Shown here in pieces: positions 5,668 through 28,465 of a stretch of DNA of 28,465 bases (positions within the stretch are counted from its first letter, which is position 1; each line of letters starts with the position of its first letter). Origin of the DNA: an uncultured Dehalococcoidaceae bacterium (GTDB lineage: Bacteria; Chloroflexota; Dehalococcoidia; Dehalococcoidales; RBG-16-60-22); the NCBI GenBank assembly GCA_964346525.1, contig CAYFVI010000086.1, positions 1-28,465 of the forward strand, read 5' to 3'. Both the position numbers and the translations under genes were made by a program. The notes under the pieces were generated by a model. That model searched no databases, had not been told where the DNA came from, and worked only from the letters and a program-made list of their open reading frames with translations.

Positions 5668-7371
5668 ATGGAAGCACCGGCAAAAAACGTAAAGAGAGAC
5701 GTTCTCAATATTCTGATGGAGGCCGGGATAATCAACGATGAGCAATTACAGCGCGTCCATGACCTGCAGCAGAAGACTGGAGATAGACTGGAACACATTC
5801 TACTTCAGCAACGGATGGTCACCCAGCAGCAATTAGCCTTTTTTACCAGCCTGCATCTGGGAATACCGTTCATCAATCTGAGAAGAGAAGGCGTCAAGAC
5901 CGATGCCGTGAAGCTGATCCCGGAAGCGGTAGCCAGAAAATATGGCATTATACCGGTTGAAGTAAAGGACAGCACCATTGTGATCGCTATGGAGGACCCC
6001 AAGGATATCGAGGCGATTGAGGATTTGGCCGCGATAACCATGAGAACAATTGAGCCGGTGATCAGCACGGCGCAGGACATCCAGGAAATGATTGATCTCA
6101 ATTACCGCATCGGTGGTGAGCTGGAGGAACAGCTGAGCCAGATTCCCACCCGTTATCGCAGCAGCGGGGGATTGAGAGAGGCCCGGGTATCGCCGGAAAC
6201 GATTGCGCAGGCGCCGGTGGTGCGCGCCATTGACCTGCTGATAAAACAGGCGGTGCGGGACCGCGCCTCCGATGTGCATATCGAGCCGCAGGAAGACAGG
6301 GTGCGAGTTCGCTACCGGATTGACGGAATTCTGAATGAGGTGATGGGCCTGCCGTTAAGTGTGCACGCGCCATTGCTTTCCCGTGTGAAAATCATGGCCG
6401 GGTTGAACATCGCCGAGCGCCGTCGCGCGCAGGATGGCCAGATAACCTTTGACATGGGTGACCGTGAGGTGGATATCCGCGTGGCCACTTCCAACACGAT
6501 ATACGGTGAAATGGCGGTGCTGAGAATACTGGACAAGGCCTTCGCCTTTATGCCTTTGCCGGAAATCGGTTTCATGCCGGAGATGCTGGAAAAATACCTG
6601 AGGATGCTGAAAACACCTTTTGGCATGATACTTATTAGCGGTCCCACCGGTTCCGGTAAAACCACCACGCAGTACGCTTCGGTAAATACGCTTGACTCCG
6701 TGGGGCGCAAGATAATCACCATTGAAGACCCGGTGGAATACCATTTCTCCAATATCAATCAGATGCAGGTCAATCCGGCGGCAGCCGTCACCTTTGCCTC
6801 CGGACTGAGGGCCACGATGCGGCTTGACCCGGATGTGATACTGGTCGGTGAGATACGTGATACGGAGACAGCGCAGATAGCCACCCAGGCCGCCCTTACC
6901 GGACATCTGGTGTTGTCTTCAGTTCACGCCAATGATACCGTAAGCACCATCATTCGAATGATTGACCTCGGTATCGAGCCCTTCCTCATTTCCTCGGCGG
7001 TGATAGGGGTTGTTGCCCAGAGAATGGTGCGCCGCGTCTGCCCGTACTGTTCACGCCCTGTCGAAGTAGCCGCGGAGGAACGGGAAGCTTATGAGGAGGA
7101 AATGGACGAAAAACGCTCTGAATTCATTATCGGTGCCGGGTGCAATTTCTGTGCTGGCACTGGCTATCTGGGACGGACCGGCATCTTTGAGGTGTTATTG
7201 GTCAGTGAGGCCATCCGCAGGATAATTGTAAAAGGCGCCGATTCCGATGAAATACGCTTGCAAGCCAAACAGGAAGGCATGGTCTCCCTGTGGCATGACG
7301 GTATGTTGAAGGTCAAAGAGGGAATTACCACTCCCTATGAGGTTCTGCGTAACGTATTTTCAATTTCTTAA
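5668..7371 (+). CDS. pilB: type IV pilus assembly ATPase PilB (GspE/PulE family) with degenerate MshEN N-terminus
   Basis: RASDVHIEP, Walker A GPTGSGKTT, Asp box TIEDPVE, Walker B DPDVILVGEIRD, His box TGHLVLSSVHAN, tetracysteine CPYC...CNFC...GYLGRTG. Confidence 0.92.
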   Translation: MEAPAKNVKRDVLNILMEAGIINDEQLQRVHDLQQKTGDRLEHILLQQRMVTQQQLAFFTSLHLGIPFINLRREGVKTDAVKLIPEAVARKYGIIPVEVKDSTIVIAMEDPKDIEAIEDLAAITMRTIEPVISTAQDIQEMIDLNYRIGGELEEQLSQIPTRYRSSGGLREARVSPETIAQAPVVRAIDLLIKQAVRDRASDVHIEPQEDRVRVRYRIDGILNEVMGLPLSVHAPLLSRVKIMAGLNIAERRRAQDGQITFDMGDREVDIRVATSNTIYGEMAVLRILDKAFAFMPLPEIGFMPEMLEKYLRMLKTPFGMILISGPTGSGKTTTQYASVNTLDSVGRKIITIEDPVEYHFSNINQMQVNPAAAVTFASGLRATMRLDPDVILVGEIRDTETAQIATQAALTGHLVLSSVHANDTVSTIIRMIDLGIEPFLISSAVIGVVAQRMVRRVCPYCSRPVEVAAEEREAYEEEMDEKRSEFIIGAGCNFCAGTGYLGRTGIFEVLLVSEAIRRIIVKGADSDEIRLQAKQEGMVSLWHDGMLKVKEGITTPYEVLRNVFSIS

Positions 7372-7377
7372 GGGGGG

Positions 7378-8631
7378 ATGATGGCGGGAACGGCTCAGGC
7401 GCCTAATAAACTGAAAGATATCACCTACCGCTATACGGCTTCCACCAGACAGGGCAATCTGGTAAAGGGCAATATCAAGGCCCCCAGCGAGATTGCCGCC
7501 GAACGTTTGCTCATCAATAAAGGATATATCCCAGAGCATGTTGAAGTCGCGCCGTCTATGTTCAGTCTGGAAGAAGCGTTCCCCACCCTCTTCCGTTTAA
7601 AACCCCGTGATATTATCGTTTTCTCCCGTCAGTTGGCTACACTGCTGCGCTCTGGCATCTCGCTGTTGCCGGCACTGGAAATCCTGCAGGGGCAGGCTGC
7701 CAGCAGCCGCGCTTTTAGAAGCGTTCTGGCCAGTATCGTGAATGATATTCGATCCGGAGGTTCGTTCTCGCAGGCGGTGAAAAAAAATCCCAAAGCATTT
7801 AGCGAGATTTACTGCCGCACCATCGCCGTTGGCGAGGAGACGGGCAACCTGGATATGACGCTCAACCAGATGGCTGACTTCATGGAGAAGCATCAGGCGA
7901 TGACCCAGAAGGTGAAAAAAGCGATGACCTACCCGATGATAGTCATGGGTGTTGGCGTCGTCGTGGTCTTTATGTTGATAACCGTGGTTATGCCCCAGTT
8001 GCTGGGCATGTTTTCCGCGCTGAATGTAGAGTTACCCTTGCCGACCAAGATTCTCATTGCCATTACCGAGATATTTCAAAATTACACCCTTTATATTGTC
8101 GTGGGTGGGGCATTATTGCTTGCTGTATTTCTCTGGATGACAAAACAACCCTCTGGGAAGCGGGTGCTGGACCGTCTACGGCTCAGCATGCCGATTATCG
8201 GTCCGCCGGCTCTTATGGCAGAGTTGGGGCGCTTTGCCAGAACGCTCTCGGTGATGATCGGTGCCGGACTTAAACTGCAAGAAACGATGGAGTTGCTGCC
8301 ACAGGCGACGGCCAATATGCTTTTCCGTGATTCTCTGCACAAAGTCAACGAGCGGTTGCTACTCGGCGAGGGGTTGTCCGAGCCGATGAGCCGGGTCAGC
8401 CTGTTTCCGCCGCTGCTTGTGCAGATGGTTGCGGTGGGCGAAGAGAGCAACACCCTGGACTTCACCATGGGGGTGGTAGCTGATTTCTATGAAACGGCCG
8501 CGGAAGAAAAAACCGCTGCCATGGTGGGCCTGATAGGCCCCGTCAGTACCATCGGCATCGCCCTGCTGGTCGGCTTCATTGCCGTATCTATTCTTATGCC
8601 GATGTATACCCTCACCGGCGCCTTCGGTTAA
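7378..8631 (+). CDS. pilC: type IV pilus platform protein PilC (GspF family), copy 1
   Basis: FSRQLATLLRSG, VGEETGNLD, AMTYP, TM segments, VAVGEESNTLD; directly follows pilB. Start at 7378 or 7381. Confidence 0.92.
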   Translation: MMAGTAQAPNKLKDITYRYTASTRQGNLVKGNIKAPSEIAAERLLINKGYIPEHVEVAPSMFSLEEAFPTLFRLKPRDIIVFSRQLATLLRSGISLLPALEILQGQAASSRAFRSVLASIVNDIRSGGSFSQAVKKNPKAFSEIYCRTIAVGEETGNLDMTLNQMADFMEKHQAMTQKVKKAMTYPMIVMGVGVVVVFMLITVVMPQLLGMFSALNVELPLPTKILIAITEIFQNYTLYIVVGGALLLAVFLWMTKQPSGKRVLDRLRLSMPIIGPPALMAELGRFARTLSVMIGAGLKLQETMELLPQATANMLFRDSLHKVNERLLLGEGLSEPMSRVSLFPPLLVQMVAVGEESNTLDFTMGVVADFYETAAEEKTAAMVGLIGPVSTIGIALLVGFIAVSILMPMYTLTGAFG

Positions 8632-9217: not shown

Positions 9218-10168
9218 ATGCAGGAGTTACTGGCCAGAATACGTCGCATGGGCTTTATGATAGTGCTCGGGGTCTGCATCATCATTTATGTTGGTCTCGG
9301 CTTTGTTTACATGCAACAGGGGCCAAAGCAGAAGAGCCTCGAAGAGCAAATAAGGAAGACCATTCTGGTGGTAAGCAAGCCTCTACCGAGCATGAAAGAA
9401 TTGCAGGCCAAATACGACGCGGTGAATAAAGCCCTGGAGCCGATGGAAACGCCTCAAGCGCTGGAGGTGATTGTCGGCATTGCGGAGAAAAGCGGCATAG
9501 ATGTCGATCCACAAAACGACAAGCTACGCATCGGTGCCCCGGGCAGACCCGAAAAAAGGAAAATGGCTGAAGGCACCTATAATGTTTTGTCTTTCGGTGA
9601 CATCATGGCGCAGGGTGATTATGAGGCCGTGATGAATTTTATATCTGATCTTGATGCCGGCAATACGCTGGAAACTATGATTCTCAGAAGGGTAAATCTT
9701 GGATGGGTACAGGTGGCACTTTCGGAAGGAGAGGTGATACGGAGAGCCGAATACCGCGCGGTAATACAGGCAGTGGCTGATATGATGGCGGATAATAATC
9801 TCGCTGAGATTCCCAACGCGGTAAATTATGATGGCGGGCTGGCGGTGAATGAAATGGCCGTCTTTCCCGATACTATCACTACCGCAAAGGAAAAGGGATA
9901 CACTGGCGTGGAGACCCCATCAGATGGCTATGTACTCTATGAGCACGACCGGATCGCGACTGATAATACCGCCGATTATCAGACGATGATATACCTTGAT
10001 AATCCCACTACGGAATATTATTACATCTGTGAGCTGGATGGCACCGTGCGGCAGTTTGATGGACCAGATTTGGCAACAGCGACGGAGTATTTCGGCAGCG
10101 AGGAGCTTATCTATGAGGCCGTTGCCAGGTTATCCATTGACCTGTATTCCAAACTGCCCAAAGGATAG
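9218..10168 (+). CDS. PilO/GspM-like bitopic protein with an inserted pilin head domain (aa ~170-280)
   Basis: N-terminal TM plus coiled coil and PilO-type motif QGDYEAVMNFISDLD...ILRRVNL...ARLSIDLY that aligns with the PilO at 25053-25616. The insert aligns with the major pilins at 11893-12886. Confidence 0.8.
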   Translation: MQELLARIRRMGFMIVLGVCIIIYVGLGFVYMQQGPKQKSLEEQIRKTILVVSKPLPSMKELQAKYDAVNKALEPMETPQALEVIVGIAEKSGIDVDPQNDKLRIGAPGRPEKRKMAEGTYNVLSFGDIMAQGDYEAVMNFISDLDAGNTLETMILRRVNLGWVQVALSEGEVIRRAEYRAVIQAVADMMADNNLAEIPNAVNYDGGLAVNEMAVFPDTITTAKEKGYTGVETPSDGYVLYEHDRIATDNTADYQTMIYLDNPTTEYYYICELDGTVRQFDGPDLATATEYFGSEELIYEAVARLSIDLYSKLPKG

Positions 10169-11892: not shown

Positions 11893-12363
11893 TTATTCAT
11901 AGCCGGTGGTTTCCTGGGTTACCGTTCCTTCTGCGTCAACGGTATAGGTGCCCTTGGTCATTTCCGTGGCCACGTAGTTGACGGTGGTGTTGACGCTGTT
12001 GTCGGCGGTGATATCGTGCTGGTAGAGTATGAAGCCGTCCTTGTCACCGGCCTGGTAGGCAGTTCCATCCGGGTCATTGAGCTTGTCAACGGTGACGGCT
12101 GAAGTGTCATCGGGGAACAGGCTCATGTTACCGGTAGCTACGGTGACCGGGTTGGGCAGGGTACTCAACTGGTTATCAACCATCATGGCGACGACCGCTG
12201 ACTGGACGTTGGCAAACTCGGTATCCGCGGCTTCCGACTCACCTCTCCCGATGAACCTTCCCACGTTGGGGATGACCACCGCTGCCAGCACACCGAGGAT
12301 GGCTACCACGATGAGCAGCTCGATCAGTGTGAACCCCTTCTCGCCTCTCTTCGGCAATCTCAT
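11893..12363 (-). CDS. pilA: major type IV pilin, copy 2 (146 aa mature, no Cys)
   Basis: Class III signal MRLPKRGEKG|FTLIELLIVVAILGVLAAVVIP with G-1, F1, E5 and P22; AGGAGG RBS. Confidence 0.93.
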   Translation of the reverse strand: MRLPKRGEKGFTLIELLIVVAILGVLAAVVIPNVGRFIGRGESEAADTEFANVQSAVVAMMVDNQLSTLPNPVTVATGNMSLFPDDTSAVTVDKLNDPDGTAYQAGDKDGFILYQHDITADNSVNTTVNYVATEMTKGTYTVDAEGTVTQETTGYE

Positions 12364-12415
12364 TTTTCACCTCCTCCTCACCTTATTTCAGGTCTAATAA
12401 ACAGAGTGATGTAAA

Positions 12416-12886
12416 TTACTCGTAGCCGGTGGTTTCCTGGGTTACCGTGCCTAGGGCGTCAACGGTATAGGTACCCTTGGTCATTTCCGTAGCCACGTAG
12501 TTGACGGTGGTGTTGACGCTGTTGTCGGCGTTGATATCGTGCTGGTAAAGTATGAAGCCATTCTTGTCACCGGCCTGGTAGGCAGTTCCATCCGGGTCAT
12601 TGAGCTTGTCAACAGTGACGGCTGAAGTGGAATCGGGGAACAGGCTCATGTTACCGGTAGCTACGGTGACCGGGTTGGGCAGGGTTTCCAGCCCGTTATC
12701 CGTCATCATGGCGACGACCGCTGACTGGATGTTGGCAAACTCGGTATCTGCGGCTTCCGATTCACCTCTCCCGATGAACCTTCCCACGTTGGGGATGACC
12801 ACCGCTGCCAGCACGCCGAGGATGGCCACCACGATGAGCAGCTCAATCAGTGTGAACCCCTTCTCGCCTCTCTTCGGCAATCTCAT
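12416..12886 (-). CDS. pilA: major type IV pilin, copy 1
   Basis: Same class III signal peptide as copy 2; 8 aa differences. Confidence 0.93.
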   Translation of the reverse strand: MRLPKRGEKGFTLIELLIVVAILGVLAAVVIPNVGRFIGRGESEAADTEFANIQSAVVAMMTDNGLETLPNPVTVATGNMSLFPDSTSAVTVDKLNDPDGTAYQAGDKNGFILYQHDINADNSVNTTVNYVATEMTKGTYTVDALGTVTQETTGYE

Positions 12887-21552: not shown

Positions 21553-22362
21553 TTAAAGAGAAAACATTCCCAGGTACCAGTTGAGGATATCGTTTCCCCA
21601 GAGCAGGGTTAGCAGGGCGGCTATGGCCAGGAAAGAGCCGAAGGGGAGGGGCTCTTGCCTGTTCTTCAGCTTCAATGACAGCAGGACTATGCCCACCAGG
21701 CCGCCGAGAATTGCCCCCAGTGTCAGCGAAAGAAGCACCAGCCTGGGGCCAGTTGCCAGCCCGATCAGCGCCATCAGTTTCACATCGCCAAACCCGATTG
21801 CCTCACGCTTATAGATGGCCAGGGTTATGAAGTAGGCTAGCAGAAGGAAGATAAAGCCCAGAGCTCCCCCCATCAGCCCGCTGACAAGGCCCGGCCACGG
21901 CCAGTCCAGATTCAGCTCAATCAGTCCCGGCGGGGGTTTAAAGACGGAAATGACCAGCGCCACCGCCATTGCCGGATAGGTGATTTTATTCAGTATAAGC
22001 TGGTGTTCCAGGTCAATGATGCCGATGACCAGAAACAGGCTGCCGTAGAAAGCAATAATTACGAACTGGACGCTCAATCCAAAATACCAGTAGCTCAGGG
22101 CAAAGAGCAATCCCGTGCCCAGTTCCACCCAGAAGGGTCTCTGAGGAATGGACGCCCCGCAATAGCGACAGCGGCGGCACAGCCATAAGTAGCTGAAGAG
22201 TGGCACCAGGTCTCCGGGTGACAGCCGGTGCTGGCAGGAATCACAGTGTGACGGCGGGCGCAGTATCGACTTGCCTGCGGGCAGGCGGTCGATGCATACA
22301 TTTAAGAAACTGCCAACAGCCGTGCCGAACGCGGCAAATATAATGATAAGCGCGATATCCAT
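21553..22362 (-). CDS. pilD: prepilin peptidase / N-methyltransferase
   Basis: GSFLNVCIDRLP, PPSHCDSC...CRRCRYC zinc site, IIDLEHQLI and GFGDVKL catalytic aspartates, LPFGSFL. Confidence 0.95.
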   Translation of the reverse strand: MDIALIIIFAAFGTAVGSFLNVCIDRLPAGKSILRPPSHCDSCQHRLSPGDLVPLFSYLWLCRRCRYCGASIPQRPFWVELGTGLLFALSYWYFGLSVQFVIIAFYGSLFLVIGIIDLEHQLILNKITYPAMAVALVISVFKPPPGLIELNLDWPWPGLVSGLMGGALGFIFLLLAYFITLAIYKREAIGFGDVKLMALIGLATGPRLVLLSLTLGAILGGLVGIVLLSLKLKNRQEPLPFGSFLAIAALLTLLWGNDILNWYLGMFSL

Positions 22363-22413
22363 TTCGCCGTATTTTGAGCGTTTTTTCTCCGTTCGTCAAG
22401 GTCAGCAAAAGAG

Positions 22414-22446
22414 TTGTCCCCTCCAGGGAGAGTCAGGAGGGGACAA
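22414..22446 (-). terminator. putative intrinsic terminator/attenuator between pilT and pilD
   Basis: 11-bp arms TTGTCCCCTCC / GGAGGGGACAA followed on the minus strand by CTCTTTT. Confidence 0.55.
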
Positions 22447-22519
22447 GGTGAGGAGGAGGTTAGGGCTATAAGCAAGGCCTTATGCCAGGATTGCTATTCA
22501 GCCTATGCTGCCTTTAAGG

Positions 22520-23590
22520 TCATTCTACCTCAACTGTTCCCATAAGCTTGGTCACCTCTTCGCGGTCGTTGCAGCAGGAAAACAGGCTGTCGCCGCTGAT
22601 GACGCCGCTGCGGTAGAGATTTAGCAGAGCGTGGTCGAGAAGCATCATTCCCGAACGTGTCTGCGTCATGATGGCATTGGGCAGTTGATGTATTTTACCC
22701 TCACGAATAATGTTCTTGACCGCCGGGCTGGCTATCATAACCTCAACGGCGGCTGTTCTCCCCTCACCATCAATTCTGGGGACCAGCGACTGACACAAGA
22801 TACCGAGGAGCAGGGACGCCAGCCGTGTCTGGGCAAGGTGTCGCTCATGGGTGGGGAAAAGGTCGACGATTCGCTCCACAGCCTGTGCGGCGCTGGTGGC
22901 ATGCCCGGTGGTCAGGACCAGGTGGCCGGTCTCGGCGACGATAAGTACCGCGGCCGCGGTTTCCAGGTCTCTCATCTCACCCACCAGAATGACATCAGGG
23001 TCCTGCCGCAGTATATGTTTCAGCGCATCAGCAAAGGATAAGGTGTCATTGCCCAGTTCTCGCTGGGTGATGGTACACTTTTTGTTTGAATACAGGTATT
23101 CAATCGGGTCCTCAAGGGTAATAACGCGTTTGTTTTCCATTGAGTTCAGGTAATTTATCATTGCCGCCAGCGTGGTGGATTTGCCGCTGCCGCTGGGTCC
23201 GCTGACCACCACCAGTCCCCTCGGTTTCATGATAAGGTCCTTGCATATAGTGGGCAATCCCAATTCGTCAAGCGCGGGAATGACCAGCGGTATAAGCCTG
23301 ATGGTAAGCGTTAGTGTACCACGCTGTTTGGCTGCGTTACAGCGCAGCCGCCCAACATCGGGCAGCGTGTAGCCAAAGTCAAGCTCAAGGCTGCGGTGAA
23401 AATCAGCCCTTTCTTTTTCCGAGCTAATCTGCTGGAAAGCCTCGGCAACGTCATCCTGTGTTAGGGGTGGCATATCAGCCTCTGGTCTAAGCAGGCCATT
23501 GATGCGGAAAATGGGGGCATCGCCGGTCACTAGGTGCAGGTCAGAGGCGCCCTTTTCTGCGGCTAATCGAATCAAAGCAAATATATCCAT
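22520..23590 (-). CDS. pilT: type IV pilus retraction ATPase PilT
   Basis: GASDLHL, GRLRCNA, GPSGSGKSTT, TLEDPIE, ILRQDPDVILVGEMRD, AETGHLV, AVKNIIREGK (AIRNLIRE-like). Start trimmed to MDIFALI at 23590. Confidence 0.93.
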   Translation of the reverse strand: MDIFALIRLAAEKGASDLHLVTGDAPIFRINGLLRPEADMPPLTQDDVAEAFQQISSEKERADFHRSLELDFGYTLPDVGRLRCNAAKQRGTLTLTIRLIPLVIPALDELGLPTICKDLIMKPRGLVVVSGPSGSGKSTTLAAMINYLNSMENKRVITLEDPIEYLYSNKKCTITQRELGNDTLSFADALKHILRQDPDVILVGEMRDLETAAAVLIVAETGHLVLTTGHATSAAQAVERIVDLFPTHERHLAQTRLASLLLGILCQSLVPRIDGEGRTAAVEVMIASPAVKNIIREGKIHQLPNAIMTQTRSGMMLLDHALLNLYRSGVISGDSLFSCCNDREEVTKLMGTVEVE

Positions 23591-23594
23591 GCGC

Positions 23595-25049
23595 TCACTC
23601 TCCTGAGTCGAGAACGACAGCAAAATTGGTGGTGCCCCCAAACACGTTCTTGAGCTCGGTAATGGTAATGCTTGAGAACCGCTCGCTGGCCTCCAGTTCT
23701 CTTAGGTATGAAAGGAGGTCATCTTCACTTTGGGCCTGTCCTTTGAGGGCCAGGGTATTGCCGTTCTGGCTGATAATGGTCAGGCCCACCGTTTCCGGCA
23801 AACTGTTGACGGTTACCTCAAGATTACGGTTTACTTCCTCGCTCTGCGTTTCCAGAACTGACAAGGCGAGGGCAAAGTTGCCGCCGGAGGTCTCGGCGTT
23901 GTTTATCTTCTGCTGGAGTTCAGCAATGACATCTGTATATTTTTGCTTCTGGACAATCCTTTGTTGGAGAAGTTGATTGGTAGTATTTAGCTGGCCCCTT
24001 GTCTCGGCAATATCCGCGGAGGTATTCTGAACTATCAGCGCTAGGAATATCAGCAGGCTGGCGGCAAGGACTGCGCTGGGCACGGCCAGGATTCTATTCA
24101 GGGAAATGGGCTCGGGCTGGTATACGGTGGGGACTATATTAAGTTCGCTTACCGAGAGCCCAGAACCGTTTGTCGATGCAGCCTGCTTGAGAACCAGTCC
24201 CATGTTTGCCATGTAACGGCTGGTATCAAGGCCATCAGGCTTCTCAAACGGCGGCGGCAGAGGCAAAACCGGCCGGCGTAGCCCGTCCGAAAGCATCTGG
24301 CACTGTTTATCTTCATCGGCCAGTTCGCCGGAAGCCCAGATGGGCAATGTAGCGGCAAGAGGGGTTTCCGGATTGTTGGTATTGTAGAATTCAATAGTCC
24401 GGCTAATATCGTCTTTTATCATCTTGGTTTTTTCCTGCCAGGATGATACCTTGTTGGGGAAAGGCACGGTGCGGACAGGCTGGGGGATACCGCCGGTCAT
24501 AACCACGATGTCAAATTCGGTCGGCTGAACATCGACGATAATAGCCATCGTGTCCTTTACCATTCTGGCCAGGAGCATGGGTTTCAGGTCCATCAGGTCT
24601 GACTTGAGGCCGGCAAGATGCAGCGTATTGAACAAAGCGTCGGCGGCGGTACGGGGAATCGCTACCAGGTAGACCTGTAGTTTTCCCTCCGGAGCGGGGA
24701 TGGACTGCCACGAAATGTAAAGCTGGTCGGGAGAGACCGGCAGCACCCGCTTTGCCTCCCGCCTTACCGCCTCCTCCAGCATGTCCCTGGGAAGCTGAGG
24801 CAGGAGGAGAGGGCGGGTAAGACAGTGCAGCCCGCTGACACCGAGGGTAACCTTATTGGCATCTATCTTGCGCATCTTGAGAGTCTGCTTGAGCTTGGCG
24901 GCAACCTCTTCCGGTTTCAGCACCACGGAGTTTTTCACCATGCCGGGCTCAAGAGGCACGTCCGCCCATTTCTTGATCCGTTGCCCGCTGGTTACCAGGA
25001 GCCGGATGCTGGTGTCATCGATGTATAAAGTGACTACTTTCTGTGCCAT
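23595..25049 (-). CDS. PilM-PilN fusion protein, copy 2
   Basis: KVVTLYIDDTSIRLL...KKWADVPLEP aligns with copy 1; ELNIVP linker, TM, coiled coil, and PilN-type LALKGQAQSEDDLLSYLRELEASERFSSI. Confidence 0.82.
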   Translation of the reverse strand: MAQKVVTLYIDDTSIRLLVTSGQRIKKWADVPLEPGMVKNSVVLKPEEVAAKLKQTLKMRKIDANKVTLGVSGLHCLTRPLLLPQLPRDMLEEAVRREAKRVLPVSPDQLYISWQSIPAPEGKLQVYLVAIPRTAADALFNTLHLAGLKSDLMDLKPMLLARMVKDTMAIIVDVQPTEFDIVVMTGGIPQPVRTVPFPNKVSSWQEKTKMIKDDISRTIEFYNTNNPETPLAATLPIWASGELADEDKQCQMLSDGLRRPVLPLPPPFEKPDGLDTSRYMANMGLVLKQAASTNGSGLSVSELNIVPTVYQPEPISLNRILAVPSAVLAASLLIFLALIVQNTSADIAETRGQLNTTNQLLQQRIVQKQKYTDVIAELQQKINNAETSGGNFALALSVLETQSEEVNRNLEVTVNSLPETVGLTIISQNGNTLALKGQAQSEDDLLSYLRELEASERFSSITITELKNVFGGTTNFAVVLDSGE

Positions 25050-25052
25050 TGC

Positions 25053-25616
25053 TTATCTTTCCTCGTAGGTATAAATCACCATCTGAATGCTGGCAGAAGA
25101 TTTTTTATCACCGGCGGGGTATGGTATGCCCATGTCAACTGACCTGACCACACCAGTAGCCAAGTTATCATTTAGCTGGGTGATGAAGCCCACCAGATTA
25201 CTGACTTCGCCTTCAATATTAGCGGTTAGCGATAACGCTCGGCAGGGTACGCTTTTCAGCTCCTCATCGACCATACCCGAAGATTTGACCTCGGTTATGT
25301 TAACGCTATTGCTCTCGGCCGTGTTGAATAATATATCGGTGATGATAATGCTGTTCATCGGTTCTGAGAGCGTTTCCCGGGCAGTTTCAGACTGCGAGAT
25401 TGTTTCGTCTAGCTGCTGCTCGAGTTCTGCCTGCTGGTTCGCGAGATCCTCAGGCTGAATTGAACTCAGCTGCGACGCGGCCAGGGCAAGCTCTTCTCTC
25501 AGTTGTTTCTTCACGCCGGACTGCTGAGAGTAGACCATCCAGAGGCTCACCAGGGCGATCAAAAAGATACCGATGCCGATAAACAGCCAGCTTTTCTTAC
25601 TCAGTTTCATCTTCAT
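25053..25616 (-). CDS. PilO/GspM-like protein, copy 2 (no insert)
   Basis: N-terminal TM, coiled coil, IEGEVSNLVGFITQLN...VRSVDM...ASIQMVIY; lies between the minor pilins and pilMN. Confidence 0.8.
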   Translation of the reverse strand: MKMKLSKKSWLFIGIGIFLIALVSLWMVYSQQSGVKKQLREELALAASQLSSIQPEDLANQQAELEQQLDETISQSETARETLSEPMNSIIITDILFNTAESNSVNITEVKSSGMVDEELKSVPCRALSLTANIEGEVSNLVGFITQLNDNLATGVVRSVDMGIPYPAGDKKSSASIQMVIYTYEER

Positions 25617-25632
25617 TCCTTAAAGATACAGG

Positions 25633-26487
25633 CTAGTTATATATCTTCCACAATGAAATATATGTATTCTCACCTTGTATCATTGCCTTACTAACAATTT
25701 TAGCGGTGGTCCTGTTAGTCTCCGGATTAATTGCGGTCGCCGTAATTTCATAAGCGGTACTGTTGATTTCACCCACGGCGCCGATATCCTCCCGACGAGC
25801 CAGTATCCAGGCGTAGTAGCCCTCTTGTTCCCCTGAACCTGCCATGTAAAAGCTCTGGGTTCGCTGTGTTTGGTTCTCAGATACCTGGGGATATGGTGAT
25901 GACATTACCCAGTTCACAAGATAAGCGCCCTCCGGGTCCAAGGTCGCATCCGGCTCGTCAGTGGAGAGGTTTTCCGTGAAATTGGCCGCTGACCCGGTCT
26001 GATAACTGTAGTTGATGGGAAGCCTGGCGCCAACTTCCTCTAGATGTATGGTTGGTTCTCCGCTGCTCGGTTGCCAGGTGACCGTAATCGTGTATTTGTA
26101 AGCATCAGCCCCTTCGTCCCAAGTGATATTGCTGCTCACGTGAAGGTATACGATGTGGCCGCCCATCTCGAGGAGTTCACCAAGATATATGGTGTGGGTC
26201 CCCTTGTCTACGGTCTGTATATTTACCTGCATATCGTTGATATTCTCGGAAAGCTGGGTGGGGGGTGGCTGGCCGTTGGCCAGCGACCATAAGATATTTT
26301 CCACGCCGGCATCGGCGGCGTAGGTGCCCTTCACGCCGGTCTGAAGCATATTGCTGGTTTTGGCGCTGGTAAAATTCAGGCTCAAGCTCGGCGCGATGGT
26401 CAGCCCGCCGATGATAAGCAGGGCCAGCGTTATGGGTAAAGCCTGTCCCGATTCTCCCTTTAGTATTTGTCGCCAAATCCTACGCAT
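25633..26487 (-). CDS. minor pilin, PilX/GspK-like (no E5)
   Basis: MRRIWRQILKGESG|QALPITLALLIIGGL, A.YAADAGVENIL. Start trimmed to 26487 after AGAGGA. Confidence 0.8.
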   Translation of the reverse strand: MRRIWRQILKGESGQALPITLALLIIGGLTIAPSLSLNFTSAKTSNMLQTGVKGTYAADAGVENILWSLANGQPPPTQLSENINDMQVNIQTVDKGTHTIYLGELLEMGGHIVYLHVSSNITWDEGADAYKYTITVTWQPSSGEPTIHLEEVGARLPINYSYQTGSAANFTENLSTDEPDATLDPEGAYLVNWVMSSPYPQVSENQTQRTQSFYMAGSGEQEGYYAWILARREDIGAVGEINSTAYEITATAINPETNRTTAKIVSKAMIQGENTYISLWKIYN

Positions 26488-26500
26488 TGTCACACATCCT

Positions 26501-27034
26501 CTAATAAACATTTGGTCGGTTATTGATGCGGTATTCCCTGGTTTCCATGGCACTCTCAACGAGGGAGGTCAGCTGCAGGGTCAGCACCGGTGCCTGGTAG
26601 CTGGCCTTGGTGGTATCATCCGGGTCCGCGGGGGCGTAATAGATATGGGTGGCAATAAGCGTCTGTTCATTGGCGCCGGCGCTGCTCCAGTGAGTCCGTT
26701 TCAGCTTGCCGGTATCGCCGGATAAATCGGCGAAGGAATAATTTGCTGTGTGATATATCTTTTCATCCAGTTCATTCCATTCCGACCACGTGAAGACGAG
26801 GAAATCCGGTGGTGTCAGGTTATCGGTGCTCACGCTCTGTGCCATTCTGGCGTCACGGCTGATCCAGTATCCGGCGGTCTGCACCTGGCGCACCGCGTTC
26901 ATATGGGTATTGTTGGTTTCGGTGCCCTTCATAATCTGGAAGATGGCGATGGAGGCGGCGCCGCTCACCAGCACGATAATGGTGGTGGCGATAATTAATT
27001 CCAGCAGGGTGTACCCTTTTTCGCCGTTTCTCAT
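26501..27034 (-). CDS. minor pilin, PilW/GspJ-like
   Basis: MRNGEKG|YTLLELIIA, AGYWISRDARMA, LKR; ATGA-coupled to the upstream gene. Confidence 0.82.
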   Translation of the reverse strand: MRNGEKGYTLLELIIATTIIVLVSGAASIAIFQIMKGTETNNTHMNAVRQVQTAGYWISRDARMAQSVSTDNLTPPDFLVFTWSEWNELDEKIYHTANYSFADLSGDTGKLKRTHWSSAGANEQTLIATHIYYAPADPDDTTKASYQAPVLTLQLTSLVESAMETREYRINNRPNVY

Positions 27035-27435
27035 CGGTCTACCTTATATCCTTCCAGGTTAAAGATGTCTTTGCCGGAGCGCTGGATGGTAATGGTGATT
27101 TTCTGGATGCCGTCATCCGGGGTATGGACTGGCTCGGCCAGCACGGTGGCGGAATACTGTGAATAATCCTTGCCCGCGGGAAAGGGAGCGGTGGAATAGG
27201 AGGTAGCGTTATATGAATAGTTGGCGTTTTTCACCCATTCCATCTGGCTTTCCGCCAGGCTCTCGGCGGTGGAGTGCTCGTCGGTGATGAAGACGGATTT
27301 GGAAGCCGTGGTCAAGCCGTTGAGGAAGGAAACGGAGACCGCGCCGAGGATAGCCACGGCGATAACCGTTTCCATGAAGGTTATTCCTGACTCCCGCCGG
27401 ATAAAATTCTTGATTAATTGTTGGAACTTCATCAT
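27031..27435 (-). CDS. minor pilin, PilV/GspI-like
   Basis: RRESG|ITFMETVIAVAILG, AESLAESQMEWVK, IQKITITI. Confidence 0.82.
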   Translation of the reverse strand: MMKFQQLIKNFIRRESGITFMETVIAVAILGAVSVSFLNGLTTASKSVFITDEHSTAESLAESQMEWVKNANYSYNATSYSTAPFPAGKDYSQYSATVLAEPVHTPDDGIQKITITIQRSGKDIFNLEGYKVDR

Positions 27436-27445
27436 TGAATTCCCC

Positions 27446-28465
27446 TTAAAATCCCGTTCCGTACATGGAATACATGGCTGAGACCAGGGAAAAGGCGATG
27501 GCGGCGATGACCACGCCGATAATCAGCGTCATGGCCGGCTGGATAAGTGAGATGAGGGAGCGGGTCTTGTCCTCGGCCTCGGCGTCATAGCTGCGGGCGA
27601 CGGCGAGCAGGGTAGCGTCGAGGTTGCCTGTTTCCTCGCCGACCCTTACCATCTGCACCATCATGGGCAGGAAGAGGCTGTTCTTGGTCATGGGCCGTGA
27701 TATACCTTCGCCCTTTATCATGTCCTGCTGGACGGTGCTGAGGGCTTTGGATATTGCCTGGTTGCGGCTGCTCTGGACGAGGAGGGGGAGGATTTCGGTC
27801 AGGGGGAGGCCGGCGCGGAAGAGCATTGACATGCTGCGGCAGAGGCGGGAGAGCTCGCTCAGGTGGACGACACGCCCGAGCAGGGGCAGGCGCAGGACGA
27901 TTTTGTCCCATCGGGCGCGGCCGTTGGGCGTTCTGATGTAGAAATAAGACAGGCCCAGTACCGTCAGCATGCCCAGCATGAGGAAGGTCCAGTACTCTTT
28001 CAATTTTCCGGAGAAGTCGATAAGCAGCCTGGCGGAAGCGGGCAGCTCAACGCCCAGCGAGGTATACAGGCTGCCGAAGCTGGGCAGGACAAAGGTTACC
28101 AGAACGGCGATGACGCCTACGGTAACCACGAAGGTAATCACCGGGTACATCAGGGCGTTTTTGGTCTCCTTGGCGGTGTTGACCTCTTTTTCCATATAAT
28201 CGGCCACCTGTTTGAGCACGGTTTCGAGGTCACCGCTCTGCTCGCCAACGCCGATGAGCCGGCAGTAGATAGGGGAAAAGATGCTGGGGTGCTTGCTCAG
28301 GGCTTTGGACAGCTGGTGGCCGGAGCGCAGGTCTGAGATGACCTCGCCCAGGACCTTTTTCAGGGCGCGGCTGGTGGCCTGTTCCTGCAGCAGTTCCAGC
28401 GAGGCAACAATATCGATGCCGGACTCCAGCAGCATGGCCATCTGCCGGTACATCAGGATAATATC
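27446..28465 (-). CDS. pilC: type IV pilus platform protein PilC, copy 2 (5'-truncated by the window edge)
   Basis: Frame is open to the edge (DIILMYRQMAMLLESG), GEQSGDLE, ALMYP, VRVGEETGNLD, IQPAMT. Confidence 0.9.
   Translation of the reverse strand, partial: DIILMYRQMAMLLESGIDIVASLELLQEQATSRALKKVLGEVISDLRSGHQLSKALSKHPSIFSPIYCRLIGVGEQSGDLETVLKQVADYMEKEVNTAKETKNALMYPVITFVVTVGVIAVLVTFVLPSFGSLYTSLGVELPASARLLIDFSGKLKEYWTFLMLGMLTVLGLSYFYIRTPNGRARWDKIVLRLPLLGRVVHLSELSRLCRSMSMLFRAGLPLTEILPLLVQSSRNQAISKALSTVQQDMIKGEGISRPMTKNSLFLPMMVQMVRVGEETGNLDATLLAVARSYDAEAEDKTRSLISLIQPAMTLIIGVVIAAIAFSLVSAMYSMYGTGF

Follow-up and report, generated by a model that had tools for sequence, protein, structure and literature searches.

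The window, which is the whole stretch of 28,465 nucleotides that was analysed, corresponds to an entire 28.5-kb contig of a metagenome-assembled genome (1.56 Mb, 81% complete). The target gene encodes a PilO-type protein into which a pilin-derived head is inserted, with GGAG located 11 nt 5' of its ATG, and the database homologues of the protein carry the labels Dehalococcoidia or Dehalococcoidales. A PilB-type assembly ATPase, a PilC-type platform protein and a small membrane protein are encoded upstream of it, and a probable fusion of PilM and PilN follows (Table 1). In this fusion, a hydrophobic segment was observed near residue 370, and the C-terminal region behind it, which matched no family, is probably PilN. 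Two major pilins, both prepilins with an N-methylation motif, are encoded on the minus strand and are accompanied there by a response regulator/histidine kinase pair. A second set of pilus-type genes was located at 21553-28453 on the minus strand, consisting of PilC, three minor-pilin-like genes, a plain PilO-like protein, PilMN, PilT and a prepilin peptidase (PilD).

Table 1. Coordinates of the pilus genes discussed in the text and of the regions of the target protein (positions in the window)
Feature	Position	Strand	Evidence or remark
PilB-type assembly ATPase, same operon as the target	5668..7371	+	T2SSE (E 5e-122), MshEN
PilC-type platform protein	7378..8631	+	T2SSF (E 5e-55)
Small membrane protein, 131 aa	8748..9143	+	No known family; in related loci, too, it immediately precedes the PilO gene
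PilO-type alignment protein with inserted pilin-derived head (P0001)	9218..10168	+	316 aa
Target: single N-terminal transmembrane helix, residues ~11-31	9248..9310	+	Hydrophobic stretch; within model helix 2-52
Target: coiled-coil/linker helices, residues 32-75	9311..9442	+	Model helices 2-52 and 59-72
Target: PilO core part 1, alpha-beta-beta motif 1 plus helix and first strand of motif 2, residues 76-166	9443..9715	+	VIA alignment to 2rjz_B, 3jc8_Oa and 5uvr_A
Target: inserted pilin-type head, residues 167-297 (131 aa), with alpha1-C helix 170-192, antiparallel strands and C-terminal tail	9716..10108	+	BLASTP, alignment, models
Target: last PilO-core strand, residues 298-313, closing the second alpha-beta-beta motif	10109..10156	+	Model strand 298-312; PilO superposition; matches the C-terminal strand of insert-free orthologues
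Probable PilM-PilN fusion, 513 aa	10198..11739	+	PilM TIGR01175 (E 3.6e-11) on the N-terminal part
Major pilin copy 1	11893..12363	-	N_methyl; head 32-38% identical to the insert, varying with the alignment
Major pilin copy 2	12416..12886	-	95% identical to copy 1
Plain PilO-like protein (second gene set), comparator without insert	25053..25616	-	187 aa

The gene order pilB-pilC-small membrane protein-PilO-pilMN was kept in more than 20 loci, the synteny set being composed of 20 homologous loci and four metagenomic contigs. A small membrane protein of 119-131 aa was encoded directly upstream of the PilO gene in the window and in each of the four loci with called genes (L073, L075, L078 and L079), and it may be an unrecognised component of the machine. 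In some relatives, three minor-pilin genes belong to the operon of the head-bearing PilO. They were placed between pilC and the small membrane protein in L075 and L079, whereas the window splits its pilus genes into two sets.

The target occupies the PilO position in a type IV pilus machine, and it is a member of the PilO family with a new inserted domain. The N-terminal features of the PilO/GspM family, namely a short N-terminus on the cytoplasmic side, one transmembrane helix and a coiled coil, were recognised in it. The full protein was modelled with 48 homologues as input at a pLDDT of 88 and a pTM of only 0.60. The model contained a long N-terminal helix and two alpha-beta-beta (simplified ferredoxin) motifs, the pair by which the PilO fold is defined (PMC5805733), with the insert lying between strands 154-166 and 298-312. 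PilO structures were at the top of the VIA search with this model (2rjz_B, Z 11.9; 3jc8_Oa, Z 11.5; 5uvr_A, Z 9.6), and EpsM, EpsL and PulM, which are homologues of GspM/GspL, came next with Z of 6.7-7.5. The superposition on 2rjz_B, the PilO of P. aeruginosa, had an rmsd of 1.9 A over 88 residues; since it covered model residues 77-313, it bridged the insert and took in the last strand. The best Foldseek match of the full model was 2rjz as well, weakly (E 0.1), and the PilO of M. xanthus (3jc8_Oa) was matched at E 5.6e-5 by a profile made from 43 insert-free relatives. Neither the target nor a two-head homologue matched any family of Pfam or NCBIfam at E <= 0.01.

A previous sequence-only reading of the same DNA had regarded the flanks of the insert as a PilO fold, which the above results bear out, and a named family with this architecture, which would have refuted that reading, did not turn up. 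It had also aligned the flanks with the plain PilO encoded at 25053-25616, and this match was recovered between that protein and target residues 9-162, though weakly (20% identity, E 4e-5). Better comparators were provided by insert-free orthologues of ~190-200 aa, which were 40-51% identical to the target over residues 1-175. In these proteins the penultimate strand is followed by a linker of 10-20 residues and then by a final strand matching target residues 298-313, in agreement with the short loop that had been pointed out in the plain PilO at the place where the head stands.

The insert separates the two final strands of the PilO core, so that the last PilO hairpin contains the entire globular domain of a pilin, which extends from alpha1-C to the C-terminus. 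By BLASTP, target residues 178-279 were aligned with residues 49-150 of pilin copy 1 (37/108 identities, 34%, E 3e-12), and the target matched copy 2 at E 1e-10. All four blocks in which the sequence-only reading had seen a pilin head lie inside the former alignment. The limits proposed there (~170-280) did enclose pilin head but were too narrow, and the true extent is residues 167-297 with a C-terminal tail included. This tail was absent from the local pilins and present in other Dehalococcoidales pilins, to which the insert was up to ~46% identical; prepilins such as P0191 could be aligned with the insert from just past the hydrophobic alpha1-N to their last residues. In the whole genome, the insert matched only the two pilins and itself, and GC content and composition were continuous across it. 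The insert begins at the equivalent of pilin residue ~38-41, and neither a G/FTLIE cleavage motif nor a hydrophobic alpha1-N was found before residue 167, as had been claimed from the letters. Without alpha1-N, the insert would not be expected to polymerise into a filament.

When modelled alone, the insert gave a pLDDT of 92.7 and a pTM of 0.85, with a 23-residue helix packed on antiparallel strands. Foldseek of this model against the PDB returned nothing below E 1. In the VIA search against solved structures pilins and pseudopilins headed the list, the best match being the pseudopilin EpsG with a Z of only 4.5, and about 15 of the 37 solved chains at Z >= 2 were pilins or pseudopilins, aligned from their residue 27 on. 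Such weak matches indicate that the head type is far from any solved pilin. Among predicted structures, the best shape match was a cluster of 206 Chloroflexota proteins (TM 0.75, 116 residues, 2.7 A), 99% of whose members bear the prepilin N-methylation motif (N_methyl), and the pilin-type head anticipated by the earlier reading thereby reappeared in the model. The homology of the insert to pilins is based on its sequence together with this match to modelled prepilins; taken as a whole, the architecture and the pilin origin of the insert can be regarded as almost certain.

More than 400 database proteins, all of them unnamed, share the design of PilO plus head. Full-length matches were present in ~30 of 300 species genomes of the order and were concentrated in three families, one carrier being a single-contig genome of 1.12 Mb. 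With the design found in so many proteins and in a single-contig genome, an assembly chimera, which the sequence-only reading had named as a possible refutation, is excluded. Among 300 evenly sampled genomes of the class, no full-length homologue was detected outside the genome of the window, and the distribution of the family is limited to part of a single order. The exhaustive search against cluster representatives sorted the matches into full-length proteins, proteins of ~190 aa matching residues 1-165 only, prepilins of ~175 aa matching residues 172-291 only, and large multidomain proteins matching the insert only. Proteins of ~440-460 aa carried two tandem heads in PilO. A literature search on PilO-pilin chimeras and on the pili of Dehalococcoidia found no description of such a protein, as the earlier reading had supposed. 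What is new in the present analysis is the test of a single origin with repeated loss, the negative co-evolution result, the evolution of the insert in line with that of PilC and PilMN, the list of other proteins that carry the domain and the envelope context.

In the tree of head domains, 33 of 41 inserts formed one supported clade which followed taxonomy, while the cognate pilins of most genomes formed a separate 'tail-less' clade; a single clade of all inserts was not rejected (p-AU 0.49). In the tree of PilO cores, by comparison, the grouping of all insert-bearing proteins as one clade was rejected (delta lnL 117, p-AU 0.0001), with insert-free orthologues interleaved with insert-bearing forms. 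Insert-free orthologues of the same order included P0147, P0151 and P0153, and others were present, for example, in the genomes G314, G317, G325 and G528. The data are compatible with a history, the simplest one, in which a pilin of a 'tail-bearing' lineage supplied the insert once, long ago, and several lineages, or at least a few, later lost it cleanly. G325 possessed the same operon and the same 'tail-less' pilin type, yet its PilO was plain, and because lineages that retain this operon and pilin type have lost the insert, it is an accessory and not a requirement. The insert was inherited with the machine, tandem-duplicated in some lineages and cleanly lost in others. Its mean pairwise identity was 0.57, compared with 0.45 for the PilO core and 0.50 for the membrane helix and coil, and this best conserved region of the protein is under selection.

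Several independent acquisitions of the insert from cognate pilins were also considered, as four insert groups stood apart on the head tree and the insert of P0132 had a peculiar loop. The idea was dropped, given the p-AU of 0.49 for a single clade and an identity of only 33% between the insert of P0132 and its own pilin. The insert of P0132 (L073:4110-5063) shares with the pilin subtype P0226 and P0253 a loop rich in Asp and Gly which resembles a calcium-binding motif; the neighbouring pilin of P0132 does not have this loop.

The head domain, which is covered by no Pfam family, was also observed in one to four tandem copies on lipoprotein, Ser/Thr kinase, LRR, GDYXXLXY and TIR proteins. A DUF6612/LolA-like lipoprotein ended in a head domain in L081:2710-3939 (-) of genome G316, and likewise in P0156 and P0169, and the lipoprotein head was the nearest relative of the main PilO insert clade. 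Two head copies each were carried by a Ser/Thr kinase with PD40 repeats (P0262), an LRR protein (P0225) and a GDYXXLXY protein (P0254), and four copies by P0168. In genome G314, a protein of 280 aa (L080:3010-3852, +) had an N-terminal TIR domain (TIR_2, E 3.5e-13) joined directly to an insert-type head, with no signal peptide or membrane segment evident; here the head is perhaps the sensor domain of a defence-type protein.

The variety of these hosts, together with the closeness of the lipoprotein copy to the main insert clade, would suit a general-purpose surface module, i.e. a promiscuous domain which binds a common ligand or acts as a spacer and makes no contact with pilin or filament. Against this, the domain in the present genome was found only in PilO and the two pilins, and the insert was more conserved than the PilO core and changed in step with the machine, its divergence correlating with that of PilC (r 0.87) and PilMN (r 0.85). 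Conservation and tracking of PilC and PilMN fit a fixed partner within the machine, and a general-purpose module is considered rather unlikely, although it has to be kept in mind. The repeated loss of the insert could be taken to mean that it has no function at all, being a neutral or decaying insertion, or that it is an artefact of assembly or gene calling. However, the frames were intact in the more than 400 proteins and in the ~30 species genomes, the single-contig genome included, the model was confident, and composition showed no break. This reading is effectively refuted by the conservation of the insert, the most conserved region of the protein.

The sequence-only reading had interpreted the insert as a pilin mimic that templates, primes, selects or caps the pilin, or else anchors the filament. 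In the first case the tethered head would dock cognate pilins head-to-head and recruit, prime, select or cap subunits. Descent of the insert from a pilin is in favour of such a role, Tammam reportedly found in 2013 that PilMNOPQ interact with PilA, and in two basal lineages the insert was 56-63% identical to the pilin of its own genome (rank 1-2 of 43); these two lineages, and only these, have an insert near their own pilin and still use tail-bearing pilins. In 13 of 15 genomes, however, the own pilin was no closer to the insert than foreign pilins were (mean 0.371 vs 0.364). The divergence of insert and pilin was correlated (r 0.51), but the correlation disappeared once PilC or PilMN was controlled, with a partial Mantel of 0.11-0.18 (p 0.24-0.32) at the low power of n=10, the co-evolution tests as a whole covering 10-15 genomes. 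The co-evolution of insert and cognate pilA which had been looked for on the advice of the earlier reading hence gave no signal. Moreover, the same pilin type is served by insert-free orthologues, related loci encode normal minor pilins in the same operon, minor pilins being known primers of pilus assembly, and the head domain is not exclusive to pili. When the full protein was predicted in complex with the mature form of the local pilin, the score was 0.00; this prediction was run with no controls and counts neither way. Matching of the cognate pilin by the insert is therefore judged improbable, and this part of the earlier reading found no support in these tests, while the anchoring of the filament that it also proposed may be correct.

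A static collar or anchor is the favoured reading of the inserted head, and a probability of roughly 40% is given to this role in a machine whose genome yielded neither a secretin nor a PBP gene. Secretin (PF00263) and PBP transpeptidase (PF00905) were found neither in the genome of the window (G000) nor in five relatives (G337, G399, G478, G493 and G499), all of these being incomplete genomes and the relatives being 93-96% complete. A single Mur-ligase-type match was obtained in G000, where PilP and secretin partners of PilO were likewise not detected. The missing matches to secretin and PBP and the single Mur match fit a single-membrane envelope without a wall; that these organisms have an S-layer is an assumption based on their relatives. 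Lacking alpha1-N, the PilO-borne head could not enter the filament core. PilO and PilN would form a ring around the pilus base and display the heads just outside the membrane, where they could act as a static collar or anchor. The heads might use their pilin-type surfaces to grip and steer the filament at its base, or they might tie the machine to the surface layer. Either way, they would replace the contacts made with PilP, secretin and cell wall in other bacteria.

With the PilO of type IVa pili (P. aeruginosa 2RJZ/5UVR, M. xanthus 3JC8) and with GspM/EpsM/PulM, the target shares the membrane helix, the coiled coil and the two alpha-beta-beta motifs, and with type IVa PilO it also shares the neighbourhood of pilM/pilN, pilB and pilC. 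Unlike in type IVa PilO, the last hairpin of the target is broken by the 131-residue head, no curated PilO model matched it, and no PilP or secretin was found. The insert-free orthologues have the same final strand and the same operon, with the linker of 10-20 residues in place of the head.

A likeness was also seen with archaeal FlaF/FlaG (ArlF/ArlG), where a subunit-like domain without signal peptide is kept, non-polymerising, in the base of the machine, in an envelope without peptidoglycan. FlaF, an S-layer binder, has an incomplete archaellin domain and no class III signal peptide, and it has been proposed to be either a subunit recruiter or a stator (PMC4425475). The target head is inserted in PilO and is of the bacterial pilin-type alpha/beta kind, whereas FlaF is a separate protein that folds as a beta-sandwich and has an N-terminal helix of its own. 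No FlaF/FlaG chain was present among the 37 solved chains at Z >= 2 in the VIA search with the insert, and the resemblance is presented as an analogy only, homology not being claimed. A wider proposal would have a ring of machine-tethered pilin heads serve as collar or stator for the emerging pilus in wall-less, secretin-less Dehalococcoidales, convergent with FlaF/FlaG, with the heads on lipoproteins, kinases and LRR proteins serving as a docking module to the pilus or its base; in this extended form it is speculative and quite unlikely.

In Litorilinea aerophila (Chloroflexota), PilO-like proteins with a C-terminal LysM are encoded beside the archaellum locus and were proposed to anchor the filament machine (PMC12488501). 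The accessory domain is in that case a C-terminal peptidoglycan binder, whereas the target carries a pilin head inside the fold and no PBP was found; the LysM-bearing protein shows that the PilO scaffold accepts envelope-anchoring passengers. Modular type IV pilins have extra domains grafted on or into the head, and pilin heads tolerate domain shuffling. Compared with modular pilins the roles are reversed in the target, where a machine protein hosts the pilin head as its passenger.

The head-bearing PilO offers a defined and conserved handle on the contact between the PilN/PilO ring and the growing filament, and it bears on what replaces PilP, secretin and wall anchoring in single-membrane, wall-less bacteria. 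The organisms are uncultured, and tracking of the cognate pilin by the insert was not borne out when tested in 10-15 genomes; natural variants with one head, two heads or no head could serve as ready-made controls. The head is furthermore an uncatalogued domain family, in which lipoproteins, sensors and a TIR protein, none of them pilins, carry a pilin-type head.

Two minor observations were made on the head domains and on the pilins. In P0139 (603 aa), P0142 (452 aa) and P0145 (486 aa), the head itself was split by an insertion of 85-210 residues without Pfam match, giving a nesting three levels deep. Two tandem pilin genes were found in most genomes, at 11893-12886 (-) in the window as well as in L054, L056-L060, L062, L064, L066, L070 and L072. 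On the head tree these tandem copies mostly grouped by genome, often with strong support, which suggests that the genes were duplicated repeatedly or that the copies undergo gene conversion with each other.
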